Source of the DNA: a virus
Lineage: Duplodnaviria; Heunggongvirae; Uroviricota; Caudoviricetes
DNA: 8,971 nucleotides
Reading direction: 5' to 3' (one strand)
Virus record (IMG/VR): IMGVR_UViG_2602041905_000014
Shown: positions 2,137 to 8,971 of the stretch, one piece after another
Numbering within the stretch: the first letter of the stretch is position 1
Layout: each line of letters opens with the position of its first letter
The notes under the pieces: generated by a model
What the model was told of the DNA's origin: nothing
The model's database searches: none
What the model saw: the letters and a program-made list of their open reading frames with translations, nothing else
Made by a program: the position numbers and the translations under genes

Positions 2137-2409
2137 ATGTCTCATACAATCCGTGATAAACAGAAACTGAAAGCGCGTGCCAGTAAGATTCAGGGCCAGG
2201 TCGTGGCGCTCAAGAAAATGCTCGACGAACCGCATGAATGCGCTGCAGTTTTACAACAGATTGCTGCTATCCGTGGCGCGGTAAACGGTCTGATGCGGGA
2301 AGTGATTAAAGGTCATCTGACGGAACACATCGTTCACCAGGGGGATGAGCTAAAACGAGAAGAAGATCTGGATGTCGTTCTGAAGGTGCTGGATTCTTAT
2401 ATCAAATAA
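2137..2409 (+). CDS. rcnR: Ni/Co-responsive transcriptional repressor RcnR (CsoR/RcnR family), 90 aa
   Basis: 90-aa protein starting [22 protein letters not shown], containing the HECAAV segment with the conserved Cys of the RcnR/CsoR metal site. It sits divergent from rcnA. Confidence 0.92.
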
Positions 2410-2498
2410 TTTATTAACGCGATTGTAAAACTGCCGTTTTTCCCCGTTTACAACGCGTGCGCTGGACATTACCATCCTCCTCTGCGATTTATTATCGC

Positions 2499-2549
2499 AA
2501 CCAAACGACTCGGGGTGCCCTTCTTTGTGAAGGCTGAGAAATACCCGTA
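2499..2549 (+). ncRNA. TPP riboswitch (thiM leader), 5' portion only; the match ends at the island junction
   Basis: ACGACTCGGGGTGCCCTTCTTTGTGAAGGCTGAGAAATACCCGTAT matches the thiM thi-box aptamer (GGGGUGCCC...GGCUGAGAAAUACCCGUAU) as I recall it. The expected continuation (CACCUGAUCUGGAUAAUGCCAGCGUAGGGAA) is absent; unrelated T/G-rich DNA follows from 2550. Confidence 0.7.
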
Positions 2550-2688
2550 TTTTCTCATTTAGTGTTTTTTGTAGTTCGGGAGTGTTCGTGATTGTTTGTG
2601 TATTTGTTTGATATACAATGATTTAATTGGCTTTCTTGTTTGTTGCTGTTCGTTGTTGTTTGCCGAGCTTCAGCGAAATGTGTGGTCA

Positions 2689-2712
2689 GTTGTGTGGTCA
2701 GTTTTTTGAGGC
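2689..2712 (+). repeat. Perfect 12-bp tandem direct repeat (TGTGTGGTCAGT x2) upstream of int
   Basis: Read directly: 2689-2700 and 2701-2712 are identical. It lies in a T/G-rich region with several TTGTTTG-like motifs between the junction and the int start. Confidence 0.8.
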
Positions 2713-2738
2713 TGGAGGACTGAAAAGAGGATCTGATA

Positions 2739-3959
2739 GTGGGAAAAGCACTAAACAAACTGAGCGATTCAACGTTAAAAAAATTGGTGGCTGTCCAGGC
2801 AGAAAAAGAGCGTTTTTACTCCGACGGGGGCGGGCTGGAGATTAAACACTCAAAGGGCGGCAAATTAACCTGGTATTTCCGGTACCGAACGGGAGGCCGT
2901 GAGGTTGCCGCAGAGCGGTTAAAGCTGGGGGCTTACCCTGAATTGTCGCTGAAAGCCGCAAGGGAAAAACGCACACTGTGCCGGGCATGGCTGGCTGAGG
3001 GTAAAAACCCCCGTTATGAGTTGTGCGCCACAGTACAGGAAGCACTAAAACCCGTTACGGTGAAGGAAGCGATTAACTACTGGCTGGAGGAATATGCGAA
3101 GGATAACCGCAAAGATTACATAAAGCTGGTGCAGCGTATGGATAAGCACATCATTTGCCATATTGGGGCAATTCCCCTTGATAAGTGTGATACAAGGCAG
3201 TGGATCGCATGTTTTGACCGCGTACGAAAAAAAGCACCAGTAGCAGCGGGCCATGTCATGCAGACATGCAAACAGGCGCTAAAGTTTTGCCGCAGGCGGC
3301 GCTACGCGTTTAGCAACGCCCTGGACGATTTGATCGTTACTGATGTGGGTAAGAGAGCAGAAATCCGCGAGAGAGTGCACAGCAACAGCGAACTAAAAGA
3401 AATTCTACGCGCTATTGATGGTGATGTGTTCGCTCCCTATTACAGTGCGTTAATGCGCTTGTTAATTGTGTTCGGGTGCAGAACGGCAGAGATCAGACTT
3501 TCAGAGATCAAAGAATGGGATCTGAAAGAAATGTTGTGGACAGTGCCAAAAGAGCACAGCAAAACGAAGGTAACAATATTCCGACCTATTCCTGATGGTA
3601 TTTTGCCGTTCATTCAGAAGCTGGTGGAGCAAAACGCACACACTGGGTTATTACTCGGCGAACTGAAAAAAGATACCACGGTGGCGCAATATGGACGAAA
3701 TGCGCATAAGCGGCTTAAGCAGGAACACTGGACGCTGCATGATTTCCGACACACGTTTACAACTATGCTGAATGATTTAGGTGTCGATCCGCATATCGTG
3801 GAGCACATCACAGCGCATCAGATGCCAGGTCAGCAAAAAACCTATAACCATTCACGCTATTTGCAGGCGAAACGGGACGCACTGAATCTATGGGTTGAGC
3901 GTCTTGATGTGATTGCAGGATATAATGAAAATATTGTGATATTGAGAGGGATACAATGA
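2739..3959 (+). CDS. int: Tyrosine site-specific integrase (phage P4-type), 406 aa, GTG start
   Basis: N-terminal arm-binding-type region (YSDGGGLEIKHSKGGKLTWYFRYR). C-terminal catalytic signature HDFRHTF, then HxxxH and the tyrosine in TYNHSRY. GTG start with an AAGAGG Shine-Dalgarno motif 8 nt upstream. Confidence 0.9.
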   Translation: MGKALNKLSDSTLKKLVAVQAEKERFYSDGGGLEIKHSKGGKLTWYFRYRTGGREVAAERLKLGAYPELSLKAAREKRTLCRAWLAEGKNPRYELCATVQEALKPVTVKEAINYWLEEYAKDNRKDYIKLVQRMDKHIICHIGAIPLDKCDTRQWIACFDRVRKKAPVAAGHVMQTCKQALKFCRRRRYAFSNALDDLIVTDVGKRAEIRERVHSNSELKEILRAIDGDVFAPYYSALMRLLIVFGCRTAEIRLSEIKEWDLKEMLWTVPKEHSKTKVTIFRPIPDGILPFIQKLVEQNAHTGLLLGELKKDTTVAQYGRNAHKRLKQEHWTLHDFRHTFTTMLNDLGVDPHIVEHITAHQMPGQQKTYNHSRYLQAKRDALNLWVERLDVIAGYNENIVILRGIQ

Positions 3960-4810
3960 CGAAAAAAGTAAATAGTAAAAAAGATTTACCAAAGTCATTT
4001 GATTTAGGCAAATATGATTGCCTAGAAAACTTGTCGGATAAAGATCTATTTCGCCAATTATATTGGCGACAAGATGATTTAACAATGAAACATTCTGAGA
4101 TGCCTGAATATGGATTTATGTTTGGTGCTGAATACCCGTTGCATAATAATTACGGGGATCCATTTGGAGAGCTGAAAGAAGACGATTGGTTTTGTGATAA
4201 ACAAAAAGAATATGACCATAAAGTGCAACCGAAGTTAATTGAGCTAAGTTATGATGATGGAATTAAACCTGTAACAAGGTTTGATATATCAATGATTAAT
4301 AAACTGACTGCGGAAAGAGGATATTGGAAGGATAAACCAATCATCATAGATAATGAGATGGTTGGAAGTTTAATATCAGAAGATAATGGGATGTTTTGGG
4401 CTGTGATGCGTGAACCAGTGAATCTCCTTTCTGATACATTAGATAATATGCTTGTTTCTGTTGACTTACTACATAACAGAGATGATGAGTTGATTGAAGC
4501 GTTTACAAAACTATTACCAAAATGGCGTAGTGAACTTTCAATTGTTGAGCCAGACAAACCAATTGCAGGAAGTTGGGAAAGCATACGACGTAAAATTATT
4601 GATTATAAGATAATCCCATTAATTGACTTATTATCTTGGGAGTTGTCTACAGATAGAAAAATTTCATTAGGGGTGCTTGCCGTATCTTTGTACCCTGATG
4701 GTGAAAAGGACACCTTTGCTATTGCTCAGACTGTAAAACCTTTCTTAGAAAAAATAATGCGCAGCGATTCTTTAGAAAAAATAAGAAAAATGTTATCTAA
4801 TGAAAATTAA
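3956..4810 (+). CDS. Hypothetical protein, 284 aa, acidic, no recognisable motif; AT-rich gene translationally coupled to int
   Basis: Its ATG (3956-3958) overlaps the int TGA (3957-3959) as ATGA, with a GAGAGGG Shine-Dalgarno motif upstream. A long uninterrupted ORF whose base composition is visibly more AT-rich than the flanking int and alpA genes. Confidence 0.7.
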   Translation: MTKKVNSKKDLPKSFDLGKYDCLENLSDKDLFRQLYWRQDDLTMKHSEMPEYGFMFGAEYPLHNNYGDPFGELKEDDWFCDKQKEYDHKVQPKLIELSYDDGIKPVTRFDISMINKLTAERGYWKDKPIIIDNEMVGSLISEDNGMFWAVMREPVNLLSDTLDNMLVSVDLLHNRDDELIEAFTKLLPKWRSELSIVEPDKPIAGSWESIRRKIIDYKIIPLIDLLSWELSTDRKISLGVLAVSLYPDGEKDTFAIAQTVKPFLEKIMRSDSLEKIRKMLSNEN

Positions 4811-4913
4811 TCATGGAGAACGATAAATTAGAATAAAGTTTATTTTTCCAATATTGCACCAACTGCTATGGTAAATAAGATGCCCTCGTTCGGTTACGTT
4901 CGAGGGTGTTTTT

Positions 4914-5138
4914 ATGAATCAAAATACACAATTTCAATCACTAACAGATCGCGTAATTCGTGAGGATGAATGTCGTAAGTTAACAGGCGTCAGCCGTACT
5001 ACACGCTACGAACTGGAGAAGAAAGGGGGCTTTCCGTCTCGCCGTAATCTTGGGGGGCGTTCTGTAGGCTGGTTGCTTTCCGAAGTTATGGACTGGGTGC
5101 AAAGCCGTGACCGCGTTAATTCAGGTAAGGCAGCCTAG
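4914..5138 (+). CDS. alpA: AlpA-family phage transcriptional regulator (MerR-like HTH, excisionase-like), 74 aa
   Basis: The translation (LTDRVIREDECRKLTGVSRTTRYELEKKGGFPSRRNLGGRSVGWLLSEVMDWV) has the AlpA-family HTH pattern. Its size and its position near the integrase are typical of P4-like islands. Confidence 0.85.
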   Translation: MNQNTQFQSLTDRVIREDECRKLTGVSRTTRYELEKKGGFPSRRNLGGRSVGWLLSEVMDWVQSRDRVNSGKAA

Positions 5139-5354
5139 GGGGGAGCTATGACACATAAAACAAAGGCGACCGGGGGCGGTCGCCAGTGGCATAACACTAA
5201 ACTTGAGCATATCCAGAATACCAGGTTGTCGGCTAGTGGGCAATGCTATCAGTCTGGCTCGATTCGCTGCCATGCCTGCAATGAGCGTATTTTCCTAGAA
5301 TACTCTTTAAGGTACTTCTCAAGGATAAACGCACATGGTGCGAATCTCTCCGGT

Positions 5355-5576
5355 TCATGTTCGTTTACCGCATTTTTGCGTTGTTTTTTCTTGGATGAGG
5401 ATAATTTCTNNNNNNNNNNGACGCTGGCGGTATTCAACTTCTCGCTTTAATGCTGCTGTTACAAACTGCCCTGTACTTTCACCAGGCATTTTTACCGCCT
5501 CAACATTGTTCATAACTTCATGCGGAACCCTTGCCGCAACTGTTTGTGATTTTGCGTTTACTGCTTTTGTCGCCAT
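5355..5576 (-). CDS. Putative ribbon-helix-helix (Arc/MetJ/CopG-like) DNA-binding regulator; the 3' end is uncertain because the frame crosses the N gap
   Basis: Minus-strand ATG at 5574-5576 with an AAGGAG Shine-Dalgarno motif 8 nt upstream. The N-terminal 52 aa (MATKAVNAKSQTVAARVPHEVMNNVEAVKMPGESTGQFVTAALKREVEYRQR) fit a beta-strand plus two-helix RHH layout. It is divergent from the operator-bearing promoter region. Confidence 0.5.
   Translation of the reverse strand: MATKAVNAKSQTVAARVPHEVMNNVEAVKMPGESTGQFVTAALKREVEYRQRXXXXEIILIQEKTTQKCGKRT
5410..5419. other. Assembly gap (run of 10 N)
   Basis: Ten consecutive N characters. The true length and sequence are unknown, so every reading frame crossing it is unreliable. 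Confidence 0.99.
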
Positions 5577-5625
5577 GTTGTGTACTCCTTACAAAAAACA
5601 AATGCAGTATGCAGGAAAAAAAATA

Positions 5626-5677
5626 AGTGTTCAACACTTGACGTGTTTAACACCTAGGCTTAAATTGGTGTTTAACA
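5626..5677. promoter_or_regulatory. Operator/promoter region: three 11-bp palindromes GTGTT-N-AACAC overlapping a sigma70-like promoter
   Basis: Palindromes at 5626-5636 (GTGTTCAACAC), 5642-5652 and 5667-5677 (both GTGTTTAACAC). TTGACG (5637-5642) plus TTAAAT/TAAATT about 16-17 nt downstream (around 5659-5665) form a plausible rightward promoter with the palindromes at the -35, spacer and start region. Confidence 0.65.
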
Positions 5678-5775
5678 CCTTGTTGATGCAAGGTGCAGAA
5701 ACGACGAAACCCGGCAGTGCGCTAACACTAACCGGGCTTCTAACCACCAACGATAGCAGAAGTATCGAGGTAGCT

Positions 5776-5979
5776 ATGTTAAATCATACCACACACCCGC
5801 AAGGGCGGGACTCGCACAACCTGAATAAATTCATCTGGCGTTTTATCGCCCTGAGCACGGCACAACCGCGCGTGATTCACATCGTGGCCACCAGCGAACA
5901 GGAAGCACGCCAGCAATCCCCGGCTGGCTGCGTGATGATATTCGCCGCCCGTATTCGTCAGGGGGTGTGCCATGCCTGA
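5776..5979 (+). CDS. Small hypothetical protein, 67 aa, first gene of the rightward operon; possibly of the Icd-like family seen in P4-like prophages (recollection, unverified)
   Basis: ATG at 5776 preceded by GAGGT, in frame with the tail of the gap-spanning ORF 5335-5979. Its stop overlaps the start of the next ORF. Confidence 0.4.
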   Translation: MLNHTTHPQGRDSHNLNKFIWRFIALSTAQPRVIHIVATSEQEARQQSPAGCVMIFAARIRQGVCHA

Positions 5980-6292
5980 TATGTCAAATTACCAGTACCT
6001 GATTAATCCGCATTTTAACTGTGAGCATGATATTGCTAAAAAGGTTTATTCCGCTGCGGATGGGGCTACTGACAATATATCAATGGGTATTGCGTCAATT
6101 GGTAGCCTGATGTGGCATGCGTCAGAAAATGAGGACTATGACGAAAAGGCTATGCGCATTGATATGGGTAATATCGGTTTGTTACTGGCAATGCTTGGGC
6201 AGTTTGATATTTCGTTACGGTGCACCATTGAAAATGCCGCAGATGCATTAAATGCCATAAAGAAAGCGAATACTGATTCAAATCGGGGATAA
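5972..6292 (+). CDS. Hypothetical protein, 106 aa
   Basis: ORF whose ATG (5972) overlaps the end of the upstream small ORF, same orientation as the replication gene. No motif recognised. Confidence 0.5.
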   Translation: MPDMSNYQYLINPHFNCEHDIAKKVYSAADGATDNISMGIASIGSLMWHASENEDYDEKAMRIDMGNIGLLLAMLGQFDISLRCTIENAADALNAIKKANTDSNRG

Positions 6293-6298
6293 ATAATC

Positions 6299-6598
6299 AT
6301 GAGAACATATTTATCTGGCTTGACTGCCAGCGGTTATGCACACCCCAAAATTATCCCCGGCGCTATTTATCTGGATAAGAACGGTAACAGAGTAACGGTA
6401 AAAGAACTGATGTTTGACCGTGTGTATTTTATTCGTGATGGCTATTCATTTCATAGTTCGCTGAACGTGGAGATCTTTATTAGCAGATTCAGGCGGGAAA
6501 TCCCGCTTTCCAGAAATAATCATGTGTCATGTATGGATGTTGATAAAAAACTACAGGAACTGAAAAACATGATTGCCGCGTGGAGAGAGCAGAAATGA
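6299..6598 (+). CDS. Hypothetical small protein, 99 aa; resembles the DUF4222-type small proteins of P4-like prophages (recollection, unverified)
   Basis: ATG at 6299 is 6 nt after the previous stop. Its TGA (6596-6598) overlaps the ATG (6595-6597) of the helicase gene as ATGA. Pattern Y-D-x-x-G-x-RV-V ... DRV-F-R-GY. Confidence 0.55.
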   Translation: MRTYLSGLTASGYAHPKIIPGAIYLDKNGNRVTVKELMFDRVYFIRDGYSFHSSLNVEIFISRFRREIPLSRNNHVSCMDVDKKLQELKNMIAAWREQK

Positions 6599-8412
6599 AA
6601 AAAGCGCCAAATTTAAAACACCAGCCGCGTGACAAAATGACGGAAGTCATCATTTTTGCGGGTAGTGATGCGTGGGCACATGCGAAGCAGTGGCAGGAAC
6701 AGGACGGGCGACTGGCAGGCGATAACGTGCCACCTGTCTGGCTTGGAGAGCAACAACTTGCCGAACTGGACAACCTGCAAATCGTACCGGACGGACGCTA
6801 TCGCGTGCGTCTCTATCAGGCGGGGTTATTGCGTCCGGTGCTTGTTAATACCATCGGGCAGAAACTGGCAGCGGCAGGTGTCAGGGATGCTGATTATTAT
6901 CCTGAAGGAATGCACAGCCAGAAACGGGAGAACTGGCACGAATATCTGGAACGTGAACGGGCAGAGCTGGCGGAAAAGAAAAAGGTAGTTGAACTGCCTG
7001 TAAAGAAAAAAGAGCGGGTAAAAGACGATAACGCTTCATCACTGGCGCTTAACCAGATGGGAGCAAGTCAACGCGGCGAAGTTCTCCTGGCACATTATGG
7101 CGGTGAACTGGCGATTCATGCTGACTCTGACACTGTTCACCATTACAACGGCGTTGTATGGGAGCCAGTACAGGATAAAGAATTACAGCGAGCTATGGCA
7201 CAGATTTTCATTGATGCGGAGATCAGCTATTCGCAGAACGCCATTAAATCGGCGGTCGATACCATGAAGTTAAGTTTGCCTGTAATGGGGAATACAGCCC
7301 GTAACCTGATTGGATTCAGTAACGGGGTATTTGATACCAGAACAGGTAATTTTCGGGAGCATAACAAAAACGACTGGTTGTTAATTGCCAGTGAATTACC
7401 TTTCAGCCCACCAGCAGAGGGGGAAACGCTGGCAACACATGCGCCGAATTTCTGGAAGTGGTTACGCCGTTCGGTGGCTGAGAATGACCGCAAGGCGGAT
7501 CGCGTACTGGCTGCATTATTCATGGTGCTGGCGAACCGGTACGACTGGCAGTTATTCATTGAGGTAACAGGTCCAGGGGGAAGTGGTAAAAGCGTGATGG
7601 CGGAGATTTGCACCATGCTGGCGGGTAAGGCCAACACAGTATCGGCAAGCATGAAGGCGCTGGAAGATGCAAGGGAACGCGCGTTAGTGGTTGGCTTTTC
7701 GCTGATTATCATGCCGGATATGACCCGCTACGCTGGTGATGGGGCAGGGATTAAGGCTATTACAGGCGGTGACAAGGTGGCAATTGACCCGAAACACAAA
7801 GCCCCCTACTCAACGCGTATTCCGGCAGTAGTGCTGGCGGTTAACAATAACGCCATGTCATTCAGTGACCGCAGCGGGGGGATCTCACGTCGTCGGGTGA
7901 TATTCAATTTTTCGGAAGTTGTACCGGAGAACGAACGTGATCCAATGCTGGCCGAAAAAATAGAAGGTGAGCTGGCGGTAGTGATTCGCCATCTGCTTAC
8001 ACGGTTTGCTGACCAGGACGAAGCCAGACGCCTGTTATATGAGCAGCAGAAATCTGAAGAAGCACTGGCGATAAAGCGAGAGGGGGATTCGCTGGTGGAC
8101 TTCTGCGGCTATCTCATGGCGTCGGTAATGTGTGATGGCCTGTTAGTGGGTAATGCTGAAATTGTGCCATTCAGCCCACGCAGGTATCTCTATCATGCCT
8201 ATCTGGCTTATATGAGGGCACATGGGTTTGGTAAACCTGTAACACTGACGCGCTTCGGTAAAGATATGCCGGGGGCAATGGCGGAATATGGCAGGGAGTA
8301 TATGAAACGGAAAACGAAGCACGGTTTGCGTTCAAACGTGACACTGACGGAGGAATCAGAAGACTGGATGCCATCATGTGTATCGGTCACTAATGACGAT
8401 AGCAAAAATTAA
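6595..8412 (+). CDS. P4 alpha-like replication protein: P4-family primase C-terminal / D5-like SF3 helicase domain with a C-terminal origin-binding region, 605 aa from ATG 6595 (the track's GTG at 6580 is less likely)
   Basis: Walker A motif TGPGGSGKS inside the segment DWQLFIEVTGPGGSGKSVMAEIC, which is characteristic of P4-type primase-helicases. GGAGAGAG Shine-Dalgarno motif 5 nt before ATG 6595. Cognate-looking iterons lie immediately downstream. Confidence 0.85.
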   Translation: MKKAPNLKHQPRDKMTEVIIFAGSDAWAHAKQWQEQDGRLAGDNVPPVWLGEQQLAELDNLQIVPDGRYRVRLYQAGLLRPVLVNTIGQKLAAAGVRDADYYPEGMHSQKRENWHEYLERERAELAEKKKVVELPVKKKERVKDDNASSLALNQMGASQRGEVLLAHYGGELAIHADSDTVHHYNGVVWEPVQDKELQRAMAQIFIDAEISYSQNAIKSAVDTMKLSLPVMGNTARNLIGFSNGVFDTRTGNFREHNKNDWLLIASELPFSPPAEGETLATHAPNFWKWLRRSVAENDRKADRVLAALFMVLANRYDWQLFIEVTGPGGSGKSVMAEICTMLAGKANTVSASMKALEDARERALVVGFSLIIMPDMTRYAGDGAGIKAITGGDKVAIDPKHKAPYSTRIPAVVLAVNNNAMSFSDRSGGISRRRVIFNFSEVVPENERDPMLAEKIEGELAVVIRHLLTRFADQDEARRLLYEQQKSEEALAIKREGDSLVDFCGYLMASVMCDGLLVGNAEIVPFSPRRYLYHAYLAYMRAHGFGKPVTLTRFGKDMPGAMAEYGREYMKRKTKHGLRSNVTLTEESEDWMPSCVSVTNDDSKN

Positions 8413-8425
8413 ACTTATGGAATAA

Positions 8426-8648
8426 CTGTTCACCACTGTTCACCCCGTCATAAATGTCTTTTATATCATTATATTATAGGGTGAACAGTTATTTATGAAC
8501 TGTTCACCAAACTATTCACTGTTCACCTTTTTGATTGTTTATTGAGCTGCAAGGGTGAACAGTGGTGAACAGTTGGTGAATAGTTTTTGTGAAACTGTTC
8601 ACCCCTTAACATTATGAATTGAAAGAGAAAATAGCAAAAGGTGAACAG
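8426..8648. repeat. Iteron cluster (putative ori or crr of the P4-like replicon): about 9 perfect and 2 degenerate copies of CTGTTCACC / GGTGAACAG in both orientations
   Basis: Perfect copies at 8426-8434, 8436-8444, 8480-8488 (reverse), 8500-8508, 8519-8527, 8554-8562 (reverse), 8564-8572 (reverse), 8595-8603 and 8640-8648 (reverse). Degenerate copies at 8511-8519 and 8575-8583. The TGTTCACC octamer is the type I iteron bound by P4 alpha. Confidence 0.85.
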
Positions 8649-8971
8649 GTGAAGGGTTAAAATACAAAAATTTTATTACAGCATGGAATATTAAGTTTTA
8701 GCCGACAGGTAGTTAGCCATAAGAGGATATTTGTCGCTTAGTATTACGTACATAACAGCAAACACTTTTCTGGTTTGCTGGATTAATAGATAAGCGCTAT
8801 AAGTTAGTTAGTTTTGAAAAATTTATTGAATAACTCTAAGCTTTCAGGATGTATATATTGAGTAGGGTAACTGATACGTTGTGAGCGTCCAATTTTTATT
8901 GTGTTCTTTTTCGTCTTCCCAAAAAATAGATTCTTCCATGTTAAAATGTTTCCGTGATTATATTTATTGTC

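Follow-up and report, generated by a model that had tools for sequence, protein, structure and literature searches.

An EcCI224-type PICI probably integrated by core recombination inside the thiM TPP riboswitch of Escherichia coli

The stretch of DNA analysed here (the window, 8,971 nucleotides) passes from the chromosomal region upstream of thiM into an integrase-bearing island, and the point of passage lies where a TPP riboswitch aptamer would be expected. Two questions follow: did the island integrate inside the aptamer, and is the aptamer rebuilt at the far end of the island or lost? Both had been raised by a sequence-only reading of the window, which placed the end of the thi-box match at about position 2549, held that the conserved 3' half of the aptamer was missing and regarded a riboswitch as an unusual attachment site. 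Our overall explanation, to which we give a probability of about 85%, is that the window is the attL side of an EcCI224-type PICI (phage-inducible chromosomal island, a kind of phage satellite) that integrated by core recombination inside the thiM riboswitch and left it unrepaired.

The two junctions of the island

The window starts with rcnA on the minus strand, followed by rcnR and the rcnR-thiM intergenic region. The features that define the left junction are the following.

2137..2409, plus strand: rcnR, chromosomal left flank outside the island, annotated as rcnR in all matching genomes
2447..2475, plus strand: predicted native thiM promoter (TTTACA-17-TACCAT), the sole consensus-like sigma-70 site in 2380-2780
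2501..2550, plus strand: 5' half (pyrimidine-sensor arm) of the thiM TPP riboswitch aptamer, a truncated RF00059 match colinear with the native aptamer
2536..2556, no strand assigned: imperfect palindrome GAGAAAT-ACCCGT-ATTTTCTC across the junction, read from the sequence; its arms pair in the attL leader RNA fold
2537..2550, no strand assigned: attL copy of the 14-bp identity block AGAAATACCCGTAT (attachment core), repeated at the far island end
2551..8971, plus strand: left 6.4 kb of the PICI

The position of the break was defined by alignment. A 624-bp query (window 2137-2760) was searched against 5,426 complete E. coli genomes and was matched in 5,366 of them. In island-free genomes the last aligned base is query base 414, window position 2550, which falls under the annotated 'TPP riboswitch'; the 414 bp shared are colinear, at 98-100% identity, with thousands of genomes that carry an annotated TPP riboswitch upstream of thiM. 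In JCM 5491, which has the site empty, the part of the flank that was compared is 100% identical. MG1655 reads ...GGCTGAGAAATACCCGTAT CACCTGATCTGG... at this point and the window reads ...GGCTGAGAAATACCCGTAT TTTCTCATT..., so that AGAAATACCCGTAT is followed by CACCTGATCTGGATAATGCC in the former and by TTTCTCATTTAGTG in the latter. The riboswitch sequence on which the earlier reading relied is correct, as is its placement of the break inside the aptamer, although the exact base is 2550 rather than 2549. Colinear continuation of the island-free leader past 2550 was not seen in the alignment: homology ends at that base, the conserved 3' half is missing and an island follows whose integrase gene begins at 2739.

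Covariance-model searches agree with the alignment. A complete RF00059 aptamer comprises P1-P5 with both sensor arms, the gathering threshold is 54.3 bits and the native MG1655 aptamer scores 71.2 bits. An Rfam search of the intact window returned no TPP match, while the sequence cut at 2552 gave a 3'-truncated match to model positions 1-60 of 105 (window 2501-2552, 17.8 bits). With E = 0.15 this truncated match is weak by itself, and the proof lies in the colinear alignment to thousands of annotated loci. The portion retained at 2501..2550 contains the P1 5' strand, P2, P3, J3-2, the P2 3' strand and most of the junction to P4. Since the RF00059 scores at the junctions stay below threshold against 71.2 bits for the native element, the window holds a fragment of a genuine TPP riboswitch and not a riboswitch; by its sequence identity this fragment is an orthologue of the thiM leader on which E. 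coli experiments have been done. The aptamer varies in its P3 loop: the window (2522-2524), Salmonella and a number of island-free E. coli genomes have TTT, whereas K-12 has TGC (compared at L002 2886-2888).

On the Rfam structure line the core covers the last bases of the J3-2 bulge, the P2 3' strand (ACCC) and most of the junction to P4; the aptamer is thus cut between its two ligand-sensing arms. The predicted thiM promoter site is also present in MG1655 and at attL is now directed into the island. A scan for terminators at attL found none, and attL itself was rejected as a terminator, the junction palindrome being only a weak AU-rich hairpin. Transcription of int from the host thiM promoter was likewise discounted, since int is preceded by a plausible promoter of the island itself, TTGTTT-16-TACAAT (from 2592).

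The far end of the island is seen in SCU-123, a complete genome that matches the window and is identical to it except for 99 bp masked by ten Ns. The SCU-123 island measures 10,949 bp from core to core, with about 4.5 kb lying past the window end, and it terminates in ...TTAGTA-AGAAATACCCGTAT-CACCTGATCTGG..., that is, in the aptamer 3' half, followed by the expression platform and intact thiM and thiD. This attR retains P4/P5 (the pyrophosphate-sensor arm), the P1 3' strand and the Shine-Dalgarno platform. The short direct repeat that had been predicted to lie beside the 3' riboswitch half and thiM is the 14-bp AGAAATACCCGTAT, and thiM lies beyond the far island end, next to the riboswitch 3' half, as the sequence-only reading required. 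A metagenome contig (L019) also carries both junctions, with an attL sequence equal to that of the window.

Islands that target tRNA genes rebuild the tRNA, and the right end of this island could in the same way bring a replacement for the aptamer 5' half and set a working TPP riboswitch before thiM. A forced full-length cmscan alignment of attR can be drawn in this sense, with GAGG...ACCC replacing P2 and a 48-nt insertion replacing P3, and a different island family at the thiM locus does rebuild the aptamer with a 73-bp copy (see below). However, the covariance-model search of both junctions that the earlier reading had proposed gives, besides the 17.8 bits at attL, only 33.3 bits for attR in SCU-123, below the threshold and far below the native score; the P1, P2 and P3 positions of attR are non-canonical, GUAAGA stands in place of the conserved CUGAGA, the identity block is just 14 bp and none of three further island-bearing loci (L009, L010 and L011) has a TPP match at threshold. 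We consider a rebuilt switch highly improbable. For the EcCI224-type family the aptamer is not restored at the far end, and neither junction holds a functional aptamer because the island supplies just the 14-bp repeat; both sensor arms are required for switching (PMC4112796). The question of whether regulation is lost or restored at the far end is thereby answered for the RNA, while the effect on thiMD expression is a prediction, discussed below.

The junction might also have been an assembly chimera or the trace of a single ancestral illegitimate insertion instead of a product of site-specific recombination. The window contains a 10-N masked run at 5410-5419, but no support was found for either possibility. 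Both possibilities are refuted by the recurrence of the junction in 72-76 finished genomes of unrelated strains and in nine metagenome contigs, by the exact direct repeats, by the conservation of the attP arms across three satellites and by the use of the same core in Salmonella.

The integrase, its attachment site and the island

Site-specific recombination at the published core directs attention to the integrase and to the DNA that it would bind. The features of the island within the window are listed below; after the N run, a window position equals the SCU-123 (L001) position minus 17,953.

2679..2702, plus strand: doubled motif TGTGTGGTCAGT x2, candidate arm-type integrase site (P' arm), from sequence
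2739..3959, plus strand: tyrosine integrase, 406 aa, with N-terminal arm-DNA-binding domain (PF13356, 62.5 bits; PF00589, 62.0 bits; PHROG 1)
3956..4810, plus strand: DUF6387 protein (PF19924, 108.8 bits)
4914..5138, plus strand: AlpA-family regulator/excisionase (PF05930, 58.8 bits; PHROG 2790)
5776..5979, plus strand: Icd-like small protein (RefSeq annotation in L001 23729-23932; PHROG 6196)
6299..6598, plus strand: DUF4222 protein (PF13973)
6595..8412, plus strand: primase/replication protein with D5_N, DUF5906 and Pox_D5 (PHROG 864, 639.8 bits)
8421..8649, no strand assigned: ACTGTTCACC repeat array in both orientations, candidate replication origin directly 3' of the primase gene

The integrase has the domains of an arm-binding tyrosine recombinase, PF00589 and PF13356 both scoring above the Pfam cut-offs of about 27 bits, and its nearest phage relatives are 31-51% identical. 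The AGAAATACCCGTAT repeat is present at the far end in L001, L010 and L011 and, with one mismatch at attL, in L009. The palindrome across the junction is a candidate pair of core-type integrase sites flanking the region of strand exchange. We reconstructed attP from four islands and found it conserved from about -230 to +200 around the core, with co-oriented doubled copies of TGTGTGGTCAnTTGTGTGGTCA in both arms, whose starts lie 97 and 85 bp ahead of the core centre and 135 and 147 bp past it; relatives in Salmonella have the same doubled motif or a variant of it. Helper-embedded, fis and hpt PICIs similarly carry a co-oriented doubled motif in both attP arms, which in the helper-embedded PICIs is placed 81 bp before the attP centre and 132 bp after it (Mageeney 2023), but neither the sequence of the motif (TGTGTGGTCA against TGTATTGC) nor the target is the same. 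That study reported its own doubled motif as unfound among other PICIs (Mageeney 2023). A pattern search of viral and metagenome collections for the attP junction of the excised or packaged form returned nothing.

The single mismatch in L009 (O157:H7 MB41-1) deserves a separate remark. Its attL core (15987-16000) reads AGAAATGCCCGTAT, in which G replaces the A found at position 7 both in attR and in the unoccupied O157:H7 site. Strand exchange may start to the left of position 7, or the change may be a later mutation; it is a hint only.

The element is organized as expected of a Gram-negative PICI by the criteria of Fillol-Salom 2018: an end integrase is followed by alpA and then by primase and origin, all in one direction and within 10-20 kb, and the island has a dedicated attachment site with 14-bp direct repeats at both ends. 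The ACTGTTCACC array is situated where the published PICI layout puts the origin, downstream of pri. Rfam matches to MIR821 and mir-4662, plant and animal microRNA families, at 8453-8632 were rejected as artefacts of the palindromic origin repeats. In SCU-123 the island goes on with a HEPN-domain gene and then, beyond the window end, with genes for a ClpP-protease/major-capsid fusion and a DUF1441 small-terminase-like protein and with a small conserved ORF. The annotation of this window-type island includes neither portal nor connector nor large terminase, and it thereby falls outside the capsid-forming PICIs, which have capsid, portal, head-tail connector and terminase genes of their own; among its ORF annotations and family matches there is no sid, psu or delta and no P4 alpha-type primase, as a P4-like satellite would have; Fillol-Salom 2018 sets these islands apart from P4.

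Three details of the island may be noted. The ten Ns at 5410-5419 replace 99 bp (L001 23274-23372) that overlap the 3' end of a minus-strand gene of the YlcI/YnfO family. The minus strand at 5703-5775 matches the SymR antitoxin RNA family, though at 33.6 bits (E = 0.0023) it falls short of the threshold of 61; this stretch borders the start of the Icd-like gene, which is on the other strand, and could be a small antisense regulatory RNA of the island. The HEPN-domain gene (window 8804-8971; L001 26757-27470) is on the minus strand, in an accessory position that separates primase and capsid genes; EcCI224 lacks it, and it may be uncharacterised anti-phage or toxin cargo; PADLOC matched neither the HEPN nor the DUF6387 protein.

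Both the element and its site are already known, since EcCI224 with the exact core was published in 2018 and again in 2023. EcCI224, a reference Gram-negative PICI, was described in E. coli Ecol_224 (CP018948.1:1961620-1972242, 10.6 kb) with the core AGAAATACCCGTAT and the location frmR-thiM (Fillol-Salom 2018 ISME J, Table S1), and the supplements of Mageeney 2023, which name it rcnR_thiM.EcCI224, print its attL and attR with capitals marking that block. The window island shares with it the locus, the core, 97.9% nucleotide identity over the left end and integrase gene, and the gene order int, DUF6387, alpA, icd-like, DUF4222, primase, protease-capsid fusion and DUF1441 (Ecol_224 locus); it differs in length (10,949 bp versus 10,609 bp) and in the extra HEPN-domain gene. 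Both Fillol-Salom 2018 and Mageeney 2023 describe the EcCI224 site as intergenic, and the word 'riboswitch' is absent from the text and supplements of either. The defence-island atlas paper mentions neither thiM nor rcnR. Main-text literature searches for the core sequence and for 'EcCI224' gave nothing relevant, the record being confined to supplementary files, and a literature search found no description of a riboswitch as an attachment site. The claim that such a site would be unusual stands to that extent, but the site itself had been published, and non-tRNA sites are already known for many PICI and prophage integrases. The new part is that the site sits in the aptamer core and that integration splits it: what the record calls intergenic is the core with which a riboswitch among the best studied of all binds its ligand, and integration parts the two sensor arms from each other.

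Two further comparisons place the island among related elements. The MB41-1 island has the same integrase type and site and contains genes for capsid, protease, portal, connectors, HNH, TerS and TerL, the full set of a capsid-forming PICI (cfPICI; Alqurainy et al. 2023); the window-type island has just the protease-capsid fusion and the TerS-like DUF1441 protein. The tRNA and tmRNA islands of the P4 and CP4-57 type, with arm-binding tyrosine integrases (Williams 2002), resemble the window island in having an attL-adjacent integrase, a short core within a gene for a conserved structured RNA and co-orientation with the target; unlike in those islands, what is targeted here is no stable RNA gene but the cis-regulatory leader of an mRNA, and it stays interrupted.

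Consequences for thiM and thiD

The data above lead us to the following model. In its mechanism the integration is an ordinary case of a PICI integrase acting site-specifically at its published core, and what is unusual is that a riboswitch is the target and is left unrepaired. The arm-binding tyrosine integrase would have recombined the 14-bp attP core AGAAATACCCGTAT with its exact counterpart in the DNA that specifies the thiM TPP riboswitch. Promoter and pyrimidine-sensor arm remain at attL, directed into the island, and about 11 kb separates them from attR, where the pyrophosphate-sensor arm, the P1 3' strand, the expression platform and thiM-thiD are found. The integrase would read DNA, and the site would be a dependable target because riboswitch function conserves that sequence. 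As a result, thiMD would be expected to lose TPP control, and its transcription would either come from a weak or unrecognised promoter at the island end or be much reduced. Excision would presumably restore the switch. Prophage 'regulatory switches' (active lysogeny, for example by the Listeria comK prophage) are cases in which a host function is reversibly interrupted by an integrated element; in contrast to comK-type active lysogeny, the interrupted unit here is a regulatory RNA.

What becomes of thiMD expression depends on whether a transcript is made and on how its leader folds; the predictions that follow come from thermodynamic folding and consensus promoter scans, both weak predictors. 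In the folding, the helix GCCAGCGUAGGGAAG.../...CUUCUUCACGUUAUGGC is common to the ligand-free native leader and to every attR leader folded. This ON helix is formed entirely by the 3' half that attR keeps, and its pairing counteracts the masking of the ribosome-binding site, so that constitutive translation is predicted if a transcript is made.

The insertion could instead silence thiM-thiD, by cutting off the promoter and by interposing island terminators, and carriers would then be thiamine auxotrophs, or bradytrophs (leaky auxotrophs that grow slowly), until excision. The sole consensus-like promoter is left behind at attL, and the last 700 bp of the island contain no promoter-like site at the cut-off of 9/12 hexamer matches, a lenient scan giving 7/12 only. 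Two hairpins stand between the last island gene and attR, one terminator-like and detected by scan (L001 30954-30979), the other GC-rich with a T run and read from the sequence by eye (L001 ~31001-31066). ThiD is needed for HMP-PP in de novo synthesis (PMC4112796), so that silencing of thiMD would mean thiamine dependence. On the other hand, each of the four island-bearing loci checked has intact thiM and thiD genes, a state that would fit continued use of the genes or a recent insertion, and the carriers belong to diverse lineages; AT-rich island ends often have weak promoters missed by consensus scans, and minimal ThiD may suffice. Silencing is a possible outcome, but we think it doubtful. 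On a more tentative view, integration and excision would form a reversible switch by which thiMD is removed from thiamine control and from its promoter, and carriers would then show a measurable thiamine phenotype, either constitutive expression or auxotrophy.

A recurrent target with two integrase families

The integrase together with the left end (at least 90% nucleotide identity) is present in 76 of the 5,426 complete E. coli genomes, in unrelated strains and hosts. Carriers include ST131, ST648, O114:H49 and O157:H7, from human, poultry, deer and marsupial sources. About 1.4% of finished E. coli genomes, ST131, ST648 and O157:H7 among them, should therefore have a thiMD operon that does not respond to TPP, and in carrier strains the riboswitch is lost to genome annotation pipelines. 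At least three different satellites, of 10.6-16.1 kb, occupy the thiM site with this integrase type.

Satellite 1: the window/EcCI224 type, 10.6-10.9 kb
Satellite 2: the full capsid-forming PICI of O157:H7 MB41-1, 16.1 kb
Satellite 3: an island with capsid, decoration and connector genes, 11.4 kb

Islands are found in both P3 loop backgrounds (TTT and TGC), which argues for independent integration events. Use of the site extends to Salmonella enterica, where integrases 74%, 70% and 67% identical to that of the window lie at the same core with the junction ...GGCTGAGAAATACCCGTAT-TTTCTAA.... An integrase protein search of species-representative genomes found no relatives, and the exact attL pattern was likewise unmatched there. 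Another E. coli integrase clade, 66% identical and forming large protein clusters, adjoins cspD (L007 2300-2500) and has a different doubled motif, GGTGTAGTCAATGGTGTAGTTAA. The PICI genes downstream of it form a similar set, and the clade is a sister lineage that uses another non-tRNA site.

The same aptamer is entered by a second integrase family. An unrelated tyrosine integrase (BLASTP E = 1.2 against the PICI integrase) follows ...GGATAATGCCAGCGTAG in 31 genomes. Its core, AATGCCAGCGTAG, lies 28 bp further downstream in the same 97-nt aptamer, and its orientation relative to thiM is the same. In E. coli strain C (L012) the island of this family is about 11 kb long and includes the defence genes PD-Lambda-2 and SIR2. 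At the right end of the island 73 bp of the aptamer are present as a copy, and because of this copy both junctions score above the RF00059 threshold.

L012 19950-20044: TPP aptamer at attL, 60.5 bits
L012 31143-31239: TPP aptamer next to thiM, 73.2 bits

A degraded, IS3-riddled copy of this family (L004) has only a 13-bp repeat (9897-9909 and 15001-15013), and its aptamer is not rebuilt.

That two unrelated integrases arrived independently at one 97-nt RNA element supports the notion that functional constraint on structured RNA, and not tRNA identity as such, makes good attachment sites. We advance only tentatively the wider proposal that riboswitch aptamers are an unrecognised class of structured-RNA attachment site, comparable to tRNA genes, and that the splitting lineage acts as a reversible thiMD switch with a thiamine phenotype. 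At the thiM aptamer itself, no fewer than two unrelated lineages of integrase are at work and they proceed in opposite ways, one splitting the target and the other rebuilding it. The presence of splitting and rebuilding families at a single locus is a natural experiment on the cost of target breakage.

DNA related to the right end of the second-family island occurs in 562 of the 5,426 genomes and, in those examined, which include O157:H7 and B, it adjoins the thiM riboswitch. The region upstream of the thiM aptamer in such genomes derives from an island remnant, and presumably so does the promoter. The presence of this right-end DNA before the riboswitch accounts for the O157:H7 match starting three bases upstream of the aptamer. 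In O157:H7 about 2.2 kb lie between rcnR and the riboswitch, ending in the HTH-like gene of the second family (L003 1840-4003; L009 13787-15950). It is into this rebuilt riboswitch that the capsid-forming PICI of O157:H7 MB41-1 is integrated.
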